Origin: Escherichia coli
Lineage (GTDB): Bacteria; Pseudomonadota; Gammaproteobacteria; Enterobacterales; Enterobacteriaceae
DNA: 64,000 nt
Assembly (NCBI RefSeq): GCF_965641715.1
Contig: NZ_OZ282453.1
Reading direction: 5' to 3' (one strand)
Part shown: positions 27,172 to 36,723 of the stretch, in pieces
Layout of the letters: the number at the start of each line of letters is the position of its first letter
Numbering within the stretch: position 1 is the stretch's first letter
The notes under the pieces: model-generated
The model's database searches: none
The model's input: the letters and a program-made list of their open reading frames with translations, nothing else
What the model was told of the DNA's origin: nothing
Program-made: the position numbers and the translations under genes

Positions 27172-28277
27172 GCCAGATCCTCATTGTTAAATGTCGGGTC
27201 GTTCGCCTGCGGAGCATCGCTCACTTCGGCAACCAGCGTATCGTTGGCGACTGGCGCAGGCGGAATGACAATCGATTCCGGCGTCACCACTGGCACCAGA
27301 TGGCGGGTAAGCGGCGCTTTTTCAGTTAATAGCTTGCCAACCGTGGCGAGGAAATAACGACCGCATAAACGCCCAAGTTTATAGTCTTCACGCAGCGCCG
27401 GAATCCGACTGCCAAGCGCGATACTATGTAATGGCTTCGGCGGATAAATTTCGAATATCCGCAGCTTGCCCGGTGGTTTCTCAATAAATTGCTGAATGTC
27501 ACGATAGCTGGTTTCATGATGCTGCACCAGATTGACCAGCGGCTGCAGGCTACTGTCACCCAGCCAGCGTTCCATGCGTTTGAACCACTGCGGCGTGTAG
27601 TACATTTGTGACGGCACAGTGCGGATGACGACTAACGTTTTAGCGCCCTGCCTTGCCGCCTCTTTAACCGGAATCGCATCACTGATCCCGCCATCCAGGT
27701 AGTTAATGCCTTCCAGCGACACTCCGCTACGATAAAAGCCAGGTATCGCACTGGAGGCGCGAATCACATCCAGCCAGTTTTGTTTGGTTGGTAAAAAGTA
27801 ATTCGGCGCGTAGTCATCCTGACGACAGGCGCACATATAAAACGATTTGCCGCTGTCAAACAACCGCGCGGCGGTATCCATTTGCAACGGCATCTGGCTT
27901 GCGGTGGCCTCCACCAGCCAGTCGAGATCGATAAGATTTCCTCCACGGACAAAGCGCAATGGATCGAAAAATTCGCGTTTTGTGGTATAGCGCATGATGA
28001 CTTTGCGCGCGTAACCGGGCTGATTGCAGATAAACGCCGAGAGGTTCTGCGCCCCGGCAGATGTGCCGAGATAAAGATCGAAAGGATTAAACTGCGCGCG
28101 CATAAACTCATCCAGCACGCCAGCCGTGAAAATTCCACGCTGTCCGCCGCCTTCACACACCAGAGCTATTCGTCCAGGCTGGAACGGCCTTAGCGACAAC
28201 GGCGCAATATTACCAAGCGTTACAGGTATTCGCTGCCCCACCTCTGCCTTCCTGTTTTTGTTGTGAAAGAATGACAA
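27168..28277 (-). CDS. yjjU: patatin-like phospholipase YjjU (true start may be internal)
   Basis: GGGxRG oxyanion motif (CEGGGQRGIF) and GTSAG serine lipase motif. Confidence 0.8.
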   Translation of the reverse strand: MSFFHNKNRKAEVGQRIPVTLGNIAPLSLRPFQPGRIALVCEGGGQRGIFTAGVLDEFMRAQFNPFDLYLGTSAGAQNLSAFICNQPGYARKVIMRYTTKREFFDPLRFVRGGNLIDLDWLVEATASQMPLQMDTAARLFDSGKSFYMCACRQDDYAPNYFLPTKQNWLDVIRASSAIPGFYRSGVSLEGINYLDGGISDAIPVKEAARQGAKTLVVIRTVPSQMYYTPQWFKRMERWLGDSSLQPLVNLVQHHETSYRDIQQFIEKPPGKLRIFEIYPPKPLHSIALGSRIPALREDYKLGRLCGRYFLATVGKLLTEKAPLTRHLVPVVTPESIVIPPAPVANDTLVAEVSDAPQANDPTFNNEDLA

Positions 28278-28362
28278 AGTAACGCAATTTATTATTCGCT
28301 AAAACCGCAAAAGCCAGTCCGCTGGACTGGCTTTGGATAAAATTTTCTTAATGGTCTGAAAT

Positions 28363-28524
28363 CTAGGGTCGTTTTCGGCCCATGAACAAACTCACCAGGA
28401 ACAGAATAATCCCGACGACAAAGACAATTTTAGCTGCGCCTGCAGCGGTACCGGCCAGACCACCAAACCCAAGTGCGGCGGCGATTAACGCGATAACCAG
28501 AAATATGATGCCCCAACGAAACAT
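28363..28524 (-). CDS. ytjA: small UPF0391-type membrane protein YtjA (about 53 aa, start at MFRWGII)
   Basis: two predicted TM helices, conserved position between yjjU and osmY. Confidence 0.7.
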
Positions 28525-28650
28525 AAGCGTCTCCTTTACCATAGTTAATGTCACCGCTTGATATGAGCGTGAAAATCACTCAATGCGATATTTTTAGTGT
28601 GGTGCACATCGCGCCTCCCGACAAAGTTCGGGAGGACGAATTACGACGAA

Positions 28651-29256
28651 TTACTTAGTTTTCAGATCATTTTTAACGCTTTTCACACCATCTACCGCTT
28701 TGGCGATACTTTCAGCACGGTCACTTTGTGCCTGAGAATCTACGGTACCGGAGAGCTGAACCACGCCATCGGTGGTTTCAACTTTCACATGACGGGAAGG
28801 GACGATATCGTCCGCCAGCAGTTTGGCTTTGATTTCACTGGTGGTGGCGGTGTCACCCGCGTAGCCCTTCACCGAGCCTTCTTTAGCGTCGCGAACGTGC
28901 AGTTTGTCGCTGACAGAGGTCACCCCTTCAACGCCTTTCGCCACTTTCACTGCCTCTTCGGCCTGGGCCTGACTTTCAACGAAACCGCTCAGGGTCACGA
29001 CTTTTTGATCGGTTTTGACAGAGATATCGGTGCTCTTGATGTTGTCATGATCCACCAGCGCCGCCTTCACTTTCGCGGTGATGGCGCTGTCATCCATGAA
29101 ATTACCGACTTTATTCATAGAGCTATCGACTTTTTGCCCTGCGCTTTCATTGGTAGTCTGCGCGTTGTTTTCCGCGTAGGCAGAGCCGGTCGCGACGGCA
29201 GAGGTCAACATTACAGCCAGCAGAGTTTTCGAAATCTTCAGTCTTGTCATAGTCAT
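28651..29256 (-). CDS. osmY: osmotically inducible periplasmic protein OsmY (start at MTMTRLKIS)
   Basis: signal peptide plus two BON domains. Confidence 0.9.
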
Positions 29257-29648
29257 CGATTTATTCCTGTATGTTTGCTCATAATTTGAGCCTGGCAACA
29301 CGAGGTTGCATTGCTGAATAGGGAGAGACTTCACCCTCTACAGAAGTCAATGGTCGCCATCACAAAAGCGATGGGTAATGAATAACGACCATTACAGCCT
29401 CTGAATCAGTTATTAATATCGGTGGAATGACAATCGACGGCTTTAGATACTGATATCTACGCATTGAACGGTATTTAACGCCGTCAGAAATGTCATTACT
29501 TTGTTAAATATAGATCACAATTTTGAAACCGCTCGGGATATCAGCGAAAACATAAGCAAAAGTGAATGTTTTAAGAACATTCCGTAAGCGGCTAATAAGG
29601 AAGGGAAATTGACAGGGCGCAGCGGCTACCGCGCCCTGGAGACAAGAA

Positions 29649-31235
29649 TTAATGCTCGCGGGTCTGGTGGAACTGAACGTCCGGATAACGTTCCTGCGCC
29701 AGGCGCAGGTTAACCATGCTGGTAGCGATGTAAGCGAGGTTATCGCCGCCATCAAGCGCCAGTTGGCTTTCGTTCTTACGCTTGAACTCTTCGAATTTCT
29801 TCGCGTCCGCACATTCTACCCACCGGGCGGTGGCAACGTTGACTGATTCATATACTGCTTCAACGTTGTATTCGCTCTTCAGGCGCGCTACCACCACATC
29901 AAACTGCAGCACACCAACCGCACCAACGATCAGGTCGTTGTTGGAGATCGGACGGAACACCTGCACCGCGCCCTCTTCGGAAAGCTGTACCAGCCCTTTG
30001 AGCAGCTGTTTTTGCTTCAGCGGATCTTTCAGGCGGATACGACGGAACAGTTCTGGTGCGAAGTTCGGAATACCGGTGAACTTCATCATCTCACCCTGGG
30101 TAAAGGTGTCGCCGATCTGAATGGTGCCGTGGTTGTGCAGGCCGAGGATATCGCCAGGATACGCTTCTTCAACGTGCGAACGGTCACCCGCCATAAAGGT
30201 CAGCGCGTCAGAGATCACCACGTCTTTCGCGGTGCGCACCTGGCGCAGCTTCATGCCTTTTTCATATTTACCGGATACCACGCGCATAAACGCCACGCGG
30301 TCGCGGTGTTTCGGGTCCATGTTGGCCTGAATTTTAAATACGAAGCCGGTAAATTTGTCTTCGCTCGCTTGTACGGTACGGGTATCAGTCTGACGCGGCA
30401 TCGGCGCAGGTGCCCACTCCACCAGGCCATCCAACATATGATCGACGCCGAAGTTACCCAGCGCAGTACCGAAGAATACCGGAGTGATTTCGCCCGCAAG
30501 GAACAGCTCTTTGTCGAACTCGTTAGACGCGCCTTTAACCAGTTCCAGTTCGTCACGTAGCTGCTGTGCCAGATCTTCACCAACCGCAGCGTCGAGATCC
30601 GGGTTATTCAGCCCTTTAACAATACGGACTTCCTGAATGGTGTGCCCTTTACCGCTCTGATAGAGATAGGTTTCATCTTTATAAAGGTGGTAAACGCCTT
30701 TAAACAGCTTGCCGCAGCCAATTGGCCAGGTGATCGGTGCGCAGCCAATTTTCAGCTCGTTCTCAACTTCATCGAGCAATTCCATCGGGTCGCGGATATC
30801 ACGGTCAAGTTTGTTCATAAAGGTGAGGATCGGCGTGTCGCGCAGACGGGTAACTTCCATCAGCTTACGGGTACGATCTTCAACACCTTTTGCGGCGTCG
30901 ATAACCATCAGGCAGCAGTCCACCGCCGTCAGGGTACGATAGGTATCTTCCGAGAAGTCTTCGTGCCCCGGGGTGTCGAGCAGGTTAACCAGGCAATCGT
31001 GATACGGAAACTGCATCACAGACGTAGTAATGGAGATCCCACGCTGCTTTTCCATCTCCATCCAGTCCGACTTAGCGTGCTGGTTGGAACCACGGCCTTT
31101 TACTGTACCGGCGGTCTGAATGGCCTGTCCGAACAGCAGCACCTTCTCGGTGATGGTAGTCTTACCGGCGTCCGGGTGAGAAATAATTGCAAAGGTTCTT
31201 CTTTTCGCTACCTCTGCGGCCAAAAGGCTTGTCAT
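29649..31235 (-). CDS. prfC: peptide chain release factor 3 (start probably [13 protein letters not shown]; N-terminus differs from the K-12 protein as I recall it)
   Basis: GTPase motifs [21 protein letters not shown]; full-length EF-G-like protein. Confidence 0.9.
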
Positions 31236-31421
31236 AATTGTTGTCTCTTTGATTATGTACAATCATATGTACAAAGAAAAATTCATGCCGCTGATTGTAC
31301 ATTTTGGAGGTATCAGAGCATAGCAGAACATGATCAGTAGGTGTATTTGTAGCCAAAGAACATTTGTACATGCAGCAATCTTTGCTCTATTGACACTGTT
31401 TATTTATACAGTTAAAAATAA

Positions 31422-31441
31422 TACTGTATGCAAACACAGTG
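31422..31441 (+). promoter_or_regulatory. candidate LexA (SOS) box upstream of the dinI-like gene
   Basis: tactgtatgcaaacacagtg fits CTGT-N8-ACAG. Confidence 0.45.
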
Positions 31442-31454
31442 TAGAGGGAGTTTT

Positions 31455-31715
31455 ATGCGTATTGAGATCTGCATAGCCAAAGAGAAAATGACTAAAATGC
31501 CAAACGGTGCTGTGGATGCGTTAAAGGAAGAATTAACCCGACGCATCAGTAAGCGTTATGACGATATAGAGGTGATCGTAAAAGCCACCAGCAATGATGG
31601 CCTTTCTGTTACGCGCACCACTGATAAAGATTCAGCTAAAACTTTTGTTCAGGAAACTCTGAAAGATACCTGGGAGTCTGCTGACGAGTGGTTTGTATAC
31701 TCCAACCATAAATGA
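31455..31715 (+). CDS. DinI-family protein (prophage-encoded; track ORF starts at 31428 but a better RBS precedes MRIEICIAK)
   Basis: [35 protein letters not shown]...[16 protein letters not shown] resembles DinI (MRIEVTIAK...QETWESADDWFV). Confidence 0.7.
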
Positions 31716-31883
31716 AGTTAATGACTATTGTGAGCGAGAAACGCGCTACTACTATATAGACAGACAAGATGCACTTACTGAATAAATACTCATAACGGAG
31801 AAACCAGCTGTATAGTGAACAATAGATTTCCAGTAGCATATTTTTACTTCACTTTTAGTTATTAATATGATAATCATAAACTA

Positions 31884-32018
31884 CGGCTCTGCCTTAAATT
31901 TGTGAGGTTGTTTCGCCTCGAAGGAACTAATGTTAGGACATACGCCACCGTTCAGTCGATGGTAACGCTTCTTAACTAGTGGTCCGCTAAGTGATGCGCA
32001 AAGTGATTGGGCAGAGCC
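31884..32018 (+). ncRNA. candidate retron msr-msd ncRNA bounded by 10-bp inverted repeats (a1/a2)
   Basis: cGGCTCTGCC at about 31884-31893 and GGCAGAGCCg at about 32009-32018 are exact reverse complements, immediately upstream of the RT gene. Confidence 0.5.
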
Positions 32019-32042
32019 GAAACGTTTACAATCCGATAGGAG

Positions 32043-33677
32043 TTGGTTTTGTCGCTACATGATAAATTATTAATGCATAACTTCGCATTAGCCAATAAAA
32101 AAAGCCCTGACTTCATATCTGAACTTCCTCAAATTGAACCTAAACCATACAGCAATGGACATAAAATTAAATGGATAAACCACACACTTACTAGCACTGA
32201 AGTTACTCCGCCTGATAACCTGATTAAAATATGCATATTGATTGAGTCAGGGGAAATTGCTATAACATCAGTAAGTGATATTGCCAATTTACTTGGAGTT
32301 CCTGCTGGCCAATTACTTTATATACTATATCGTAAAAAAGATAATTATCGTACTTTTGAAATAGAAAAGAAGAATGGTAAAAAAAGAGTCATTAATGCTC
32401 CTTGTGGCGGTCTATCGATACTCCAAACGAGACTAAAGCCCGTTCTTGAATATTTCTACAGGCCAAAGAAATCTGCTCATGGTTTTATAAAAGGAAAGAG
32501 CATCATTACTAATGCTGGGATGCATATTAAAAAAAAATTTGTCGTAAACATTGACCTAGAAAACTATTTCGAATCAATAAGTTTTGCTAGGGTTTATGGA
32601 ATATTTAAAAGTAAACCTTTTAATTTTTCTCATCCAGCAGCTACTGTTTTAGCTCAGTTATGTACTCACAATGGAAAATTACCTCAAGGTGCGTGTACAT
32701 CGCCAATATTAGCAAATATTGCATCAGCTTCTCTAGACAAACAGCTCACCCAATTTGCAGGAAGAAAAAAAATATCTTATTCTAGGTATGCTGACGACAT
32801 AACTTTTTCTTTCAATCAGAGAAATATTGATATAATCAAAAAAAACGACGACGGAAGTTATAGTCTTAGTGAAACTATAGACAATATTATTTCAAAAAAT
32901 GGCTTTAAAATAAATTATGATAAATTTAGAGTTCAAACCAGAAATACAAGACAAAGTGTTACTGGCTTAGTGGTTAATGATAAAGTTAACATTAACAGAA
33001 GATATATAAGAATTACACGTTCAATGATTCATAGATGGACAGATGATAAGCTAAAGTATGCACTTCTCTTTGCTACAGAAAAAGGATATCAGGCAAAGGA
33101 TAATAACCACGCAATTCAAATTTTCCGAAATCATATTTATGGAAGACTTAGCTTTATAAAAATGGTTAGAGGGAAAGACTATCCAGGATATTTAAAACTG
33201 ATGTCATACATGAGTCATAACGATCCATTAAAAACCCAAGAAGGATTGCGAGCAATGAAAGAAACAGAAAACTTTGATGTTTTTATATGCCATGCAAGCG
33301 AAGACAAAAAAGACATTGCAATTCCAATATATGACGAGTTAACTAAACTTAAAATTTCAGCCTTCATAGATCATGTTGAGATAAAATGGGGCGACTCCTT
33401 AATTGAGAAAATAAATGCAGCACTAGTTAAATCAAAATATGTCATCGCTATTTTATCTGCTAATTCAGTCAATAAGGAATGGCCTCAAAAAGAATTAAGA
33501 GCAGTTTTAGCCAGCGAAATATCGAGTGGCGACGTAAAACTTTTGACCCTATTAAAAAAAGAAGACAAGGAGGTCGTAAACCTATCATTACCTTTACTTA
33601 GTGATAAGTTTTATATGGTCTATGATAATAATCCTGAAGTAGTCGCCAACAATATTAAATCACTCTTACAACGATAA
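32043..33677 (+). CDS. retron-type reverse transcriptase fused to a C-terminal TIR domain (544 aa)
   Basis: RT motifs NAP, VNIDLENYFESI, TSPILANI, YSRYADDITFSF (YxDD) and retron-specific VTG (SVTGLVVN); C-terminus FDVFICHASEDKKDIAIPIYDEL...NKEWPQKEL is TIR-like. Confidence 0.85.
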   Translation: MVLSLHDKLLMHNFALANKKSPDFISELPQIEPKPYSNGHKIKWINHTLTSTEVTPPDNLIKICILIESGEIAITSVSDIANLLGVPAGQLLYILYRKKDNYRTFEIEKKNGKKRVINAPCGGLSILQTRLKPVLEYFYRPKKSAHGFIKGKSIITNAGMHIKKKFVVNIDLENYFESISFARVYGIFKSKPFNFSHPAATVLAQLCTHNGKLPQGACTSPILANIASASLDKQLTQFAGRKKISYSRYADDITFSFNQRNIDIIKKNDDGSYSLSETIDNIISKNGFKINYDKFRVQTRNTRQSVTGLVVNDKVNINRRYIRITRSMIHRWTDDKLKYALLFATEKGYQAKDNNHAIQIFRNHIYGRLSFIKMVRGKDYPGYLKLMSYMSHNDPLKTQEGLRAMKETENFDVFICHASEDKKDIAIPIYDELTKLKISAFIDHVEIKWGDSLIEKINAALVKSKYVIAILSANSVNKEWPQKELRAVLASEISSGDVKLLTLLKKEDKEVVNLSLPLLSDKFYMVYDNNPEVVANNIKSLLQR

Positions 33678-34121
33678 TTCTCTCACAAAAGCAAATGTGC
33701 AGATTGATGCGTATTAAGTATTAACCTGCACATACAAAAAATTAATAAAATAATATATTTTTCATAACCTGCAGGTAACAATAATATGTGTCGTAACGAA
33801 TAGTTGGATAACCTCTATACCCTATTAACCAACCAATTAACTCTATGTAATCTCGCAGCCTCAAAACCCGACTATTGTTCTCTTAACAGTCAGTTCACGT
33901 TCCATTTCGGCCTGAGCCCCATAACATGGAAGAAAAAACGCCCCCAGTCAGTCCAGCTTTCAGACAATCAGTGTGTCACCTGCCGATAATATTCTGAGTA
34001 GTTTTTTCAGCCCAGGCCTTTCGGACTTTGTACCACTGATTTTATCTTCAAAATCAGCGCGCATTCTTCGTAGTCCAGCAAACTCTTGTATATGACGTTA
34101 TTATGGCTACAGCAGTAACGA

Positions 34122-34215
34122 TTATTCCATAACAGGTACTGTAGGCCACTCAATATCCGGTGCTACTGATGTATCAACACGGTTCAGCAACACCCGATAC
34201 TTTTTCCAGGTTGTT
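34122..34215 (-). pseudogene. 3' remnant of the tail fibre assembly gene tfa (about 31 codons)
   Basis: minus-strand translation [28 protein letters not shown] matches the lambda Tfa C-terminus; no upstream tfa coding sequence. Confidence 0.55.
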
Positions 34216-34326
34216 ACCAGACTCACATTCGTTCATTAATATGTCCTGTGATTTGCGTGCGGTGAGGTAGCCTTTTCCCAACCTCACCATCATCCGGCAA
34301 TTTGTATTTATCACAAACGGCCTGTA

Positions 34327-36723
34327 TCAGTTGTCTGTTGCACCAACCATACCCGCAAATTTGAGCCATTGTCCTGATGGACTTCTGTTACCGCGGTAGT
34401 GATAAACAAGGATTGCATTTGTTACTCCACCATAGTCAGCTTTATGTGATGTGGTTAAGCGAATTGTATAATCACCATCGGGCAGGTTAAAAACTTCAAT
34501 TACAGTCCCTGCTAATTCAACCGCTCCAAACCCCGTTATATTGTTGATGCTGCCCGCATTGAATCCCATCATATCGCCAAAACCAATCCAGTACTTTTTG
34601 CTGAACGCACCATTTGACCTCAGGTGGTTAATAAATGTGGACATACTCATGCCCATTTCGCCGCCAGTTATGGCTGATGTACGTACCGAAATACTTGGCA
34701 GAGCACTACTCTTCACATAAGAGCTCAGAAGATTTATGACTTCTGTTTTCGTATAAGCATTAACGTTAGCCGCAGTCAACGTTATATCCGCAGTGCCATC
34801 AAACTTCACACCAGCAATTTCCCTTGCAGTCTGCAATTTCGTGGCACTGGCTGCGTTACCCGTTGTATCCTGATTGCCTGCCGCATTCACCCCCGGGATC
34901 AAATCTTTTACTGTATAAATCTGCGCCCAGTCCGACTCAAACCCATACTCATCCCGTGAGGAACGATAAAACAGCCCACCATTTTTATAATTGGCCCTGA
35001 TTTGCAACGTCCGGCAACTTCCACCCCCTGTATAGAAGTTTGCAACAATATAGCTGCTGCCTGTCCGGGTGACATTGTATGCACCAGATTTGGCATTCCA
35101 CGGAACGCCTCCCTCTGACTCTGCGTGCACACCGGACGATCCAAGAGCAAAAGCAGAGACATCTGCAGCGGACAGCCTGATGTCTGATTTCAATGCCTTA
35201 CCATTCACCTTACGACCAGATGGAACCCGGTCATTTGCATTATCATTCACCGCTTTCACCGCCATTGGTGTTGCCGCCAGCGATTCACTGTCACTGTCCG
35301 TGGCACTGCTGAGCTGTACCACCCCCTTTCTCGTCGTGCTCGCATCCTCTAGCGCCACGGCAGATGCAATATCCTCTGCCCGTTTTGCTGCTGTCTCGGC
35401 ACGCGTTGCTGCAGATTCCGACGTACTTTTGCTCTGAGCTGCCGCTGTCGCACTACCAGCTGCCTCTGTCGCCTTCGTGGATGCCGTCGTGGCACTGACC
35501 TTCGCCTCTGACGCCTGTCTTACCGCCTCATCTTTTGAAGCAGACGCCGATGATGCTGATGACGCCGCCGAACTGGCGGACGATGCGGCTGCCGTTTCTG
35601 AGGCTCCTGCGCGGGTTTCCGACGCTTTCGCATTCGTCTCAGATGTCTTCGCTGCGGAAGCAGAACTCGCAGCTGCAGTGGCCTGTTCAGTGGCTTCGCC
35701 AGCCTTCGTTGTGGCTGTTGAAGCGGACGATGCAGCGCTTTCTGCCGATTTTCCGGCGGCAGCGGCACTGGCTACAGCCTCCCCTGCCTTCACTGATGCC
35801 TCACGGGCCGATGATGCAGCCGCGGTTTCTGAGCCTGCCGCAGCTGAGGCACTCTGTCCCGCTGCCGTTTCAGAAGACCTGGCGTTCGTCTCGGACGTTT
35901 TTGCCGCTTTCGCGGAATTGCCTGCCGCTGTTGCCGAGGAAGCTGCGCTACTGGCGCTCGAGGATGCGTTCGTTTCTGATGATTTTGCCGCCTCTTTTGA
36001 AGCCGCCGCATCCCGGGCTGAGGTGGCAGCTTCTGACGCTTTCGTAGTCGCGGTGGATGCAGAAGTGGCTGCTGATTGTTGTGACGCTGCCGCATTCGTT
36101 TCTGACGTTTTCGCGGCACTGGCACTGGTAGCTGCCGCGCTTTTTGAGGACTCTGCAGCGGCAGCACTTTTTGATGCTTCAGTGGCCTTTGTTGATGCCG
36201 TTCCTGCGCTGGAAGTCGCTGACTGAGCCGACGACGCGGCCTGTCCGGCTGACGTGCTGGCTGCGCGTGCTGAGCCTGCAGCATCAGTCGCATGGGTTGC
36301 CGCCTCACGGGCTGATGTGCTGGCATCACTGGCTGACTTCTTCGCGGCTGCCGTGTTCTGTGCCACCACGGACGCGTTACGCGCCACCTCTTCCACCATC
36401 AGCTCAAAACGGCGCAGTGCCTCCGGACGGGCATCATCCTCCGTCATGGCACCGAGAAAATCATTCAGCGTACCGGGTCGGGAATCTTCATACACTGTGA
36501 TGGTCCCGGCATGTGACGGCGGGAATCCTTCCACCAACAGAATAACGCTGTACTGACCGTACTCAACGTCCATGCTGTAACGCCCGGCTTCATCCGGATT
36601 TTCTGAGGCCAGCGTGTTCACCACCACCGTGGTACTGTTACGTTTTGCTTTCAGCTGGATTGTGCAGTTCTGTACCGGTTTTCCTGTGCCGTCTTTCAGT
36701 ACACCTGAAATCTTTACTGCCAT
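34327..36723 (-). CDS. side tail fibre protein Stf (lambda-like N-terminus, Ala/Ser-rich repeats, divergent C-terminus)
   Basis: MAVKISGVLKDGTGKPVQNCTIQLKAKRNSTTVVVNTL...EEVARNASVVAQNTAAAKKSA matches lambda Stf. Confidence 0.85.
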   Translation of the reverse strand: MAVKISGVLKDGTGKPVQNCTIQLKAKRNSTTVVVNTLASENPDEAGRYSMDVEYGQYSVILLVEGFPPSHAGTITVYEDSRPGTLNDFLGAMTEDDARPEALRRFELMVEEVARNASVVAQNTAAAKKSASDASTSAREAATHATDAAGSARAASTSAGQAASSAQSATSSAGTASTKATEASKSAAAAESSKSAAATSASAAKTSETNAAASQQSAATSASTATTKASEAATSARDAAASKEAAKSSETNASSSASSAASSATAAGNSAKAAKTSETNARSSETAAGQSASAAAGSETAAASSAREASVKAGEAVASAAAAGKSAESAASSASTATTKAGEATEQATAAASSASAAKTSETNAKASETRAGASETAAASSASSAASSASSASASKDEAVRQASEAKVSATTASTKATEAAGSATAAAQSKSTSESAATRAETAAKRAEDIASAVALEDASTTRKGVVQLSSATDSDSESLAATPMAVKAVNDNANDRVPSGRKVNGKALKSDIRLSAADVSAFALGSSGVHAESEGGVPWNAKSGAYNVTRTGSSYIVANFYTGGGSCRTLQIRANYKNGGLFYRSSRDEYGFESDWAQIYTVKDLIPGVNAAGNQDTTGNAASATKLQTAREIAGVKFDGTADITLTAANVNAYTKTEVINLLSSYVKSSALPSISVRTSAITGGEMGMSMSTFINHLRSNGAFSKKYWIGFGDMMGFNAGSINNITGFGAVELAGTVIEVFNLPDGDYTIRLTTSHKADYGGVTNAILVYHYRGNRSPSGQWLKFAGMVGATDN

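Follow-up and report, generated by a model that had tools for sequence, protein, structure and literature searches.

A small gene coding for a DinI-like protein lies directly upstream of a retron in a prophage of Escherichia coli, which raises the question of whether the two form a functional unit or are simply neighbors. The original prediction envisaged both options: a damage-inducible RecA modulator might couple the SOS state or prophage induction to the activity of the retron, or the gene might be an independent moron. We addressed the question within a 64-kb window (the whole stretch of DNA that was analyzed, 64,000 nucleotides). In this window, prfC (minus strand, 29649-31262) is followed by a short intergenic region, a promoter with the small gene (plus strand), the retron (plus strand) and tail-fibre genes (minus strand), from which a lambdoid prophage runs on to the window end. 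The explanation that we favor, with a probability of roughly 80%, is that the promoter and the small gene constitute a self-contained, LexA-controlled prophage dinI module, and that the retron is a separate cassette that landed beside it once. The coordinates of the features are collected in Table 1.

Table 1. Features of the dinI-retron region, in positions of the 64-kb window
Feature	Position	Strand	Remarks
Sigma-70-type promoter of the dinI-like gene	31390-31419	+	-35 TTGACA 31390-31395; -10 TAAAAAT 31413-31419
LexA-type box 1 (predicted)	31394-31413		CACTGTTTATTTATACAGTT; core CTGTTTATTTATACAG at 31396-31411; exact CTGT-N8-ACAG; fills the -35/-10 spacer
LexA-type box 2 (predicted)	31422-31441		TACTGTATGCAAACACAGTG; core CTGTATGCAAACACAG at 31424-31439; exact CTGT-N8-ACAG; covers the expected transcription start
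Shine-Dalgarno element GAGGGAG	31444-31450	+	4 nt ahead of ATG 31455; read from the sequence
DinI-like gene, 86 aa	31455-31715	+	ATG 31455 to stop 31715; Pfam DinI, PHROG 189, 1GHH
142-bp spacer	31697-31838		Retron-bearing lineage only; replaces the dinI 3' codons and intrinsic terminator
Retron promoter TTTACT-17-TATGAT	31843-31871	+	Promoter scan; retained ahead of the ncRNA by relatives in four other contexts
Retron ncRNA (msr-msd)	31884-32018	+	a1/a2 inverted repeats CGGCTCTGCC / GGCAGAGCCG
RT-TIR fusion gene, type XII retron	32043-33677	+	RefSeq start at ATG 32073
Right-hand cargo with frameshifted invertase (recombinase) remnant	33741-34143		RefSeq annotation of identical loci
Tail-fibre assembly gene, 3' remnant	34144-34210	-	Backbone homology resumes (blastn against retron-less L002, L003 and L094)

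The DinI-like gene and its promoter

The longest open reading frame of the small gene begins at ATG 31428, while the start supported by homology is ATG 31455. We rejected the upstream start, whose ATG is created by a G that is A in all six of the other aligned copies. All the aligned relatives retain the purine-rich, Shine-Dalgarno-like element ahead of ATG 31455, five of the six with nearly the same sequence and the two most divergent copies with AGGAGG. With the start at 31455 and ATG 31428 not conserved, box 2 is situated in the promoter/5' UTR rather than in the coding sequence, and the earlier view that it overlaps the 5' end of the gene has to be revised.

The assignment of the product to the DinI family, put forward from the outset, is borne out by matches to Pfam PF06183 (E = 1.7e-19, end to end, model positions 1-63 of 63), to PHROG 189 ('RecA filament binding protein DinI'; E = 1.1e-30) and to the structure of E. 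coli DinI (PDB 1GHH; E = 1.9e-13, aligned from residue 1). The C-terminal TWESAD(E/D)WF helix is conserved, its counterpart in 1GHH being ETWESADDWFV. In E. coli DinI, this acidic C-terminal helix (TWESADDWF) has been implicated in RecA binding. The score against NF007893, the NCBIfam equivalog model for chromosomal dinI, is 72.8 bits, below the cutoff of 111. We therefore consider the protein to be a DinI-like phage paralogue rather than a dinI orthologue; RefSeq labels the gene at identical loci 'DinI-like family protein'. The open reading frame is intact in nearly all the copies examined, the divergent copy L091 having an internal stop. The last five codons (YSNHK) and the stop lie past a recombination junction (see below), and the YSNHK tail stands where retron-less copies end in a single His.

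The domain composition also bears on a possible antirepressor role. Tum, the SOS-controlled antirepressor of coliphage 186 (146 aa), combines an N-terminal antirepressor half with a DinI-like domain. The gene described here would likewise be an SOS-controlled temperate-phage gene with a DinI-like domain, but of the 151 positions of the PHROG 189 profile, the 86-aa protein covers just 71-149. Since the alignment is limited to the C-terminal half of the profile, the antirepressor half of Tum is absent, and no N-terminal antirepressor is fused to the DinI-like domain.

The exact CTGT-N8-ACAG palindrome that had been reported upstream of the gene is present (box 2), yet it is not the only one, as a second, better-scoring box (box 1) had been missed. 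Exact matches to this pattern occur four times in the 64-kb window against 0.65 expected, and none of 100 shuffles gave four. Two of the four are the boxes in question, 28 bp apart. A LexA weight matrix trained on E. coli SOS boxes was also run over the window, which gives only semi-independent evidence. With 24.9 bits, box 1 outscores every other site in the window; box 2, at 20.6 bits, comes third, and both lie within the range spanned by the training boxes (12.6-27.8 bits). The promoter itself matches the consensus at 10 of 12 positions (promoter scan).

Conservation was assessed in an alignment of seven module copies from five integration sites (prfC, ssrA, yecD, btsS and dusA), with DNA identity down to 84%. 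Both half-sites of box 2, CTGT and ACAG, are invariant in all seven copies. In box 1, ACAG is likewise invariant, and CTGT is found in five of the seven, with CTGG in the two most divergent. The -35 and -10 elements and the start codon are invariant or nearly so, whereas the positions inside the box spacers and all of the sequence upstream of the -35 element vary. The -35 element is the first base of the shared prophage module, and similarity vanishes upstream of it. The region thus has the layout of an SOS promoter, with two CTGT-N8-ACAG operators placed on core promoter elements. We infer that the dinI promoter is LexA (SOS)-controlled through two predicted operators, in line with the LexA-type regulation originally proposed. 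The protein and its chromosomal counterpart (1GHH) would then share SOS-box control in addition to the fold family, about 47% identity and the TWESAD(D/E)WF helix. They differ in the number of operators, two here rather than one, and in the YSNHK tail created by the retron junction.

Two other LexA-like sites were noted. The second-best site in the window (62585-62604, CACTGTTTATTTTTACAGTA; 22.7 bits, exact CTGT-N8-ACAG) belongs to the same prophage and overlaps codons 3-9 of a minus-strand ORF (61554-62612) for a 352-aa DNA methyltransferase with a DPPY motif. SOS control may extend to this ORF as a second prophage gene, or the site may be there by chance. A weak half-site-like match in the spacer (31776-31795, 10.1 bits) scores under every training box and was dismissed.

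Distribution of the dinI module and of the retron

The promoter-plus-dinI module (about 31385/31390-31696) was found in 3,312 places in 1,758 of the 5,426 complete E. coli genomes, reaching up to seven copies per genome and occupying no fewer than five integration sites. Every inspected copy, irrespective of which of the five integration sites it came from (prfC, ssrA, yecD, btsS or dusA), is the last element of a lambdoid prophage and points inward to the tail-fibre genes. In lambdoid prophages, the dinI module forms part of the backbone, at the attR end on the side of the tail-fibre genes. It occurs without the retron at the same prfC site as well as at the four other integration sites. Between dinI and the tail-fibre assembly gene is a slot with varying contents: espM2/espW in O157, nleC in O26 and, in an O145 prophage likewise integrated at prfC, ynfT-ydfK-invertase. 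In phage cdtI, in which the module adjoins int, cdtABC fills the slot held here by the retron. In two loci, L002 and L094, homology to the tail-fibre assembly gene sets in again just 145 bp beyond the module.

Compared with four other loci (L002, L003, L092 and L106), the interval 31697-34143 acts like a slot for exchangeable cargo. On the right-hand side of the retron, in 33860-34222, lie the frameshifted remnant of a Pin-type invertase and a tail-fibre assembly gene that is truncated. The tail-fibre inversion switch, intact in the O145 prfC prophage, is disabled here by insertion or later decay. The assembly gene remnant also gives a partial, sub-threshold Rfam match to IS009 (34165-34235, minus strand; 41.8 bits against a gathering threshold of 117).

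The neighbor is a full member of type XII ('Retron-TIR'): a YADD reverse transcriptase (RT) is fused to TIR, and an ncRNA closed by a1/a2 lies upstream. The RT-TIR protein matches PADLOC RT-TIR_XII (E = 2.5e-187) and NCBIfam NF042941 ('TIR domain-containing anti-phage reverse transcriptase'; 671 bits, cutoff 600), and its YADD and TIR motifs are invariant in a 30-sequence alignment. The ncRNA fold has an energy of -53.3 kcal/mol (z = -2.66) and an 11-bp a1/a2 closure, and the ncRNA is highly conserved in six relatives. An Rfam scan of 28000-36000 at a permissive threshold returned only weak sub-threshold matches, with no retron or other relevant RNA family among them.

The retron is present in 82 E. 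coli genomes (83 records, 84 places) at 99.3% identity or more, which makes the dinI module about 40 times more widespread (3,312 places versus 84). The five carrier loci inspected share the prfC-type arrangement, four of them chromosomal at prfC and one on a plasmid record. In NZ_CP019281.1, a 33.7-kb record of strain 13P484A filed as a plasmid, the dinI-retron unit occupies 17604-19920 with 99.4% identity; this record may represent a prophage copy that was excised or mis-binned. In strain EC416 (L001, 7314-8414), RT-TIR is frameshifted/split and the dinI-like gene is intact. RT-TIR is interrupted by ISSen4 or IS1A in three other carrier records.

Nine relatives of the retron, with 63-85% protein identity, reside in other contexts. 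Four are located after the primase of P4-like satellites (L004, L005, L088 and L090) and one, in a P2-like prophage (L089), is flanked by the replication gene and the portal gene; by ORF layout, another (L103) is probably placed in the same way. One more is in a chromosomal site (L086), and two are on further viral contigs (L102 and L104). No DinI homologue was found within 5-6 kb of the retron in these nine close relatives. The same was true for about 80 further retron RT loci, among the matches listed, from a contig profile search with the 30-sequence RT-TIR alignment. This negative control consists mostly of distant generic retron RTs, full-length RT-TIR accounting for about 16 of the matches listed. 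Likewise, no LexA-type box was detected near the RT gene in the six close relatives scanned. The IMG/VR loci L098-L101 begin at the RT gene and are uninformative on the upstream side. The DNA common to the retron relatives is 31839-33740 and starts at the retron's own promoter. Judging by this shared sequence, the mobile retron unit is 31839-33740, its own promoter included. The sole peculiarity noted in this retron is its location, a lambdoid cargo slot rather than the P4/P2 hotspots of its relatives.

The junction and a possible SOS input into the retron

Homology to all the retron-less copies ends at 31696, 19 nt ahead of the stop codon, and resumes at 34144; homology to the retron relatives starts at 31827-31839. 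We used a query spanning the junction (31696/31697) to compare retron-bearing and retron-less copies. It was fully covered in the same 83 records (82 genomes) as the retron and elsewhere breaks at 31696. One identical junction in all the carriers therefore indicates a single acquisition. From the dinI stop codon (31713-31715) to the a1 repeat of the ncRNA at 31884 there are 168 nt, so that the initial estimate of about 170 bp was accurate.

These data fit a self-contained dinI module and a separately acquired retron, and hence the independent moron mentioned at the start: the module is widespread without the retron, and the retron was acquired once. The retron cassette (promoter, ncRNA and RT-TIR) would have landed a single time in the dinI/tail-fibre-assembly slot of a prfC-integrating prophage. 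Since the retron is a separate mobile cassette in a cargo slot, the adjacency would reflect a shared insertion hotspot and not shared function.

Full transcriptional independence is less certain. In the retron-less copies, a strong hairpin (-31 to -32 kcal/mol, z about -3 to -3.5) and then a UUUUU tract are found about 75 nt past the dinI stop. Because homology ends at 31696, this native terminator is missing from the window. A terminator scan found no terminator-like site in 31200-32100, and the spacer folds no better than shuffled sequence (z = -0.6 to -1.1). The missing terminator, the common orientation of dinI and the retron and the distance of only 168 nt all count against full independence. 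With the terminator lost and no other one predicted ahead of the retron, transcription driven by SOS may read through into it.

LexA-controlled transcripts would in that case run through the spacer into msr-msd and RT-TIR, making up an accidental SOS operon in which retron RNA, RT and msDNA rise upon SOS or prophage induction atop the basal expression from the retron's own promoter. However, that promoter is conserved in every context, and therefore upstream transcription is not needed. Moreover, Rho-dependent termination in the untranslated spacer is possible. The arrangement arose once and thus gives no demonstration of selection for it. In addition, the RT gene is broken by a frameshift or an IS element in at least five carriers, dinI staying intact where inspected. 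Taken together, we regard read-through as unlikely. It is similarly doubtful that terminator loss has put the RT-TIR retron under extra LexA control, so that an abortive-infection system is boosted in SOS or prophage induction. If read-through did occur, it would illustrate, on a modest scale, how a prophage promoter that already responded to DNA damage can capture a defence cassette.

A closer bond would make the DinI-like gene an unrecognised accessory gene of the type XII retron, its product serving as a sensor input, an antitoxin-like brake or a trigger that acts on the retron via RecA filaments. Some retrons monitor recombination and repair proteins, and here the proximity and the shared orientation of the two genes are what speaks for such a partnership. 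Yet the DinI-like gene does not co-occur with RT across independent loci: the association does not extend beyond one clonal junction, and the module is far commoner alone. Furthermore, type XII is a single-gene system in PADLOC, none of whose defence-system models is matched by the DinI-like protein. A published survey of retron-associated genes makes no mention of DinI or SOS (PMC7736814). A partnership of this kind is in our view very improbable. The coupling of the retron to SOS or RecA modulation, as originally suggested, is at odds with the single junction, the relatives without a DinI gene, the retron's own promoter and the roughly 40-fold excess of the module. The comparative non-association may, at the same time, be compatible with a lineage-specific dinI-retron interaction.

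That the boxes are chance palindromes and the gene a constitutive or silent part of a decaying prophage remnant, as the internal stop in L091 might suggest, is scarcely credible given two boxes set 28 bp apart exactly on promoter elements and ranking first and third in the window, half-sites essentially conserved in divergent copies whose spacer positions vary, and a reading frame intact in nearly all copies examined.

Comparison with known prophage dinI genes

LexA-controlled DinI paralogues at prophage ends are already published and routinely annotated, and the self-contained module that we favor can be compared with several of them. [quoted passage not shown] 2011, PMC3121763). As in Gifsy, a prophage-borne DinI paralogue is found here directly behind a promoter with a LexA box. 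In contrast, Gifsy dinI is the first gene of an operon with a small antirepressor and irsA, near replication genes, while the module in our window is monocistronic, has two boxes and is situated at the attR/tail-fibre end. We call it monocistronic because the retron-less copies have an intrinsic terminator some 75 nt past the stop codon. No small antirepressor ORF is co-transcribed downstream of dinI here; in the window, the ORF list contains no plus-strand ORF of at least 40 aa between 31716 and 32043. A Tum-like or Gifsy-like antirepressor role was rejected, as there is neither an N-terminal extension nor a small ORF downstream.

Another close parallel is the DinI-like gene of Serratia phage vB_SspS_OS31, which follows the tail genes in the opposite orientation and has a LexA box 14 bp upstream; the DinI homologue of Klebsiella phage PhiKO2 is stated to be LexA-regulated (PMC7556043). 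As in OS31 and PhiKO2, the gene here comes after the tail cluster and is oppositely oriented, and a LexA-type box precedes it by about 14 bp. The phage backbones differ, and the second ORF that overlaps the OS31 gene is absent here.

On the strength of the sequence and of these precedents, the region 31390-31715 would act as a strong promoter, shut by two LexA operators, from which a single DinI-family gene is transcribed. As long as the lysogen is undamaged, LexA dimers on box 1 and box 2 would occlude RNA polymerase. Upon DNA damage, RecA filaments would bring about LexA self-cleavage and the promoter would fire, as the Gifsy and PhiKO2 dinI genes suggest. The small acidic DinI-like protein would then bind RecA filaments through its C-terminal helix and tune their co-protease activity, by analogy with the E. 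coli DinI family.

For the biology of these prophages, the dinI-like gene is accordingly not to be read as part of the retron system. Instead, the attR-end module, a predicted two-operator SOS promoter together with dinI, delimits on one side a lambdoid cargo slot, whose contents may be cdtABC, type III effectors or, as in this window, a retron.
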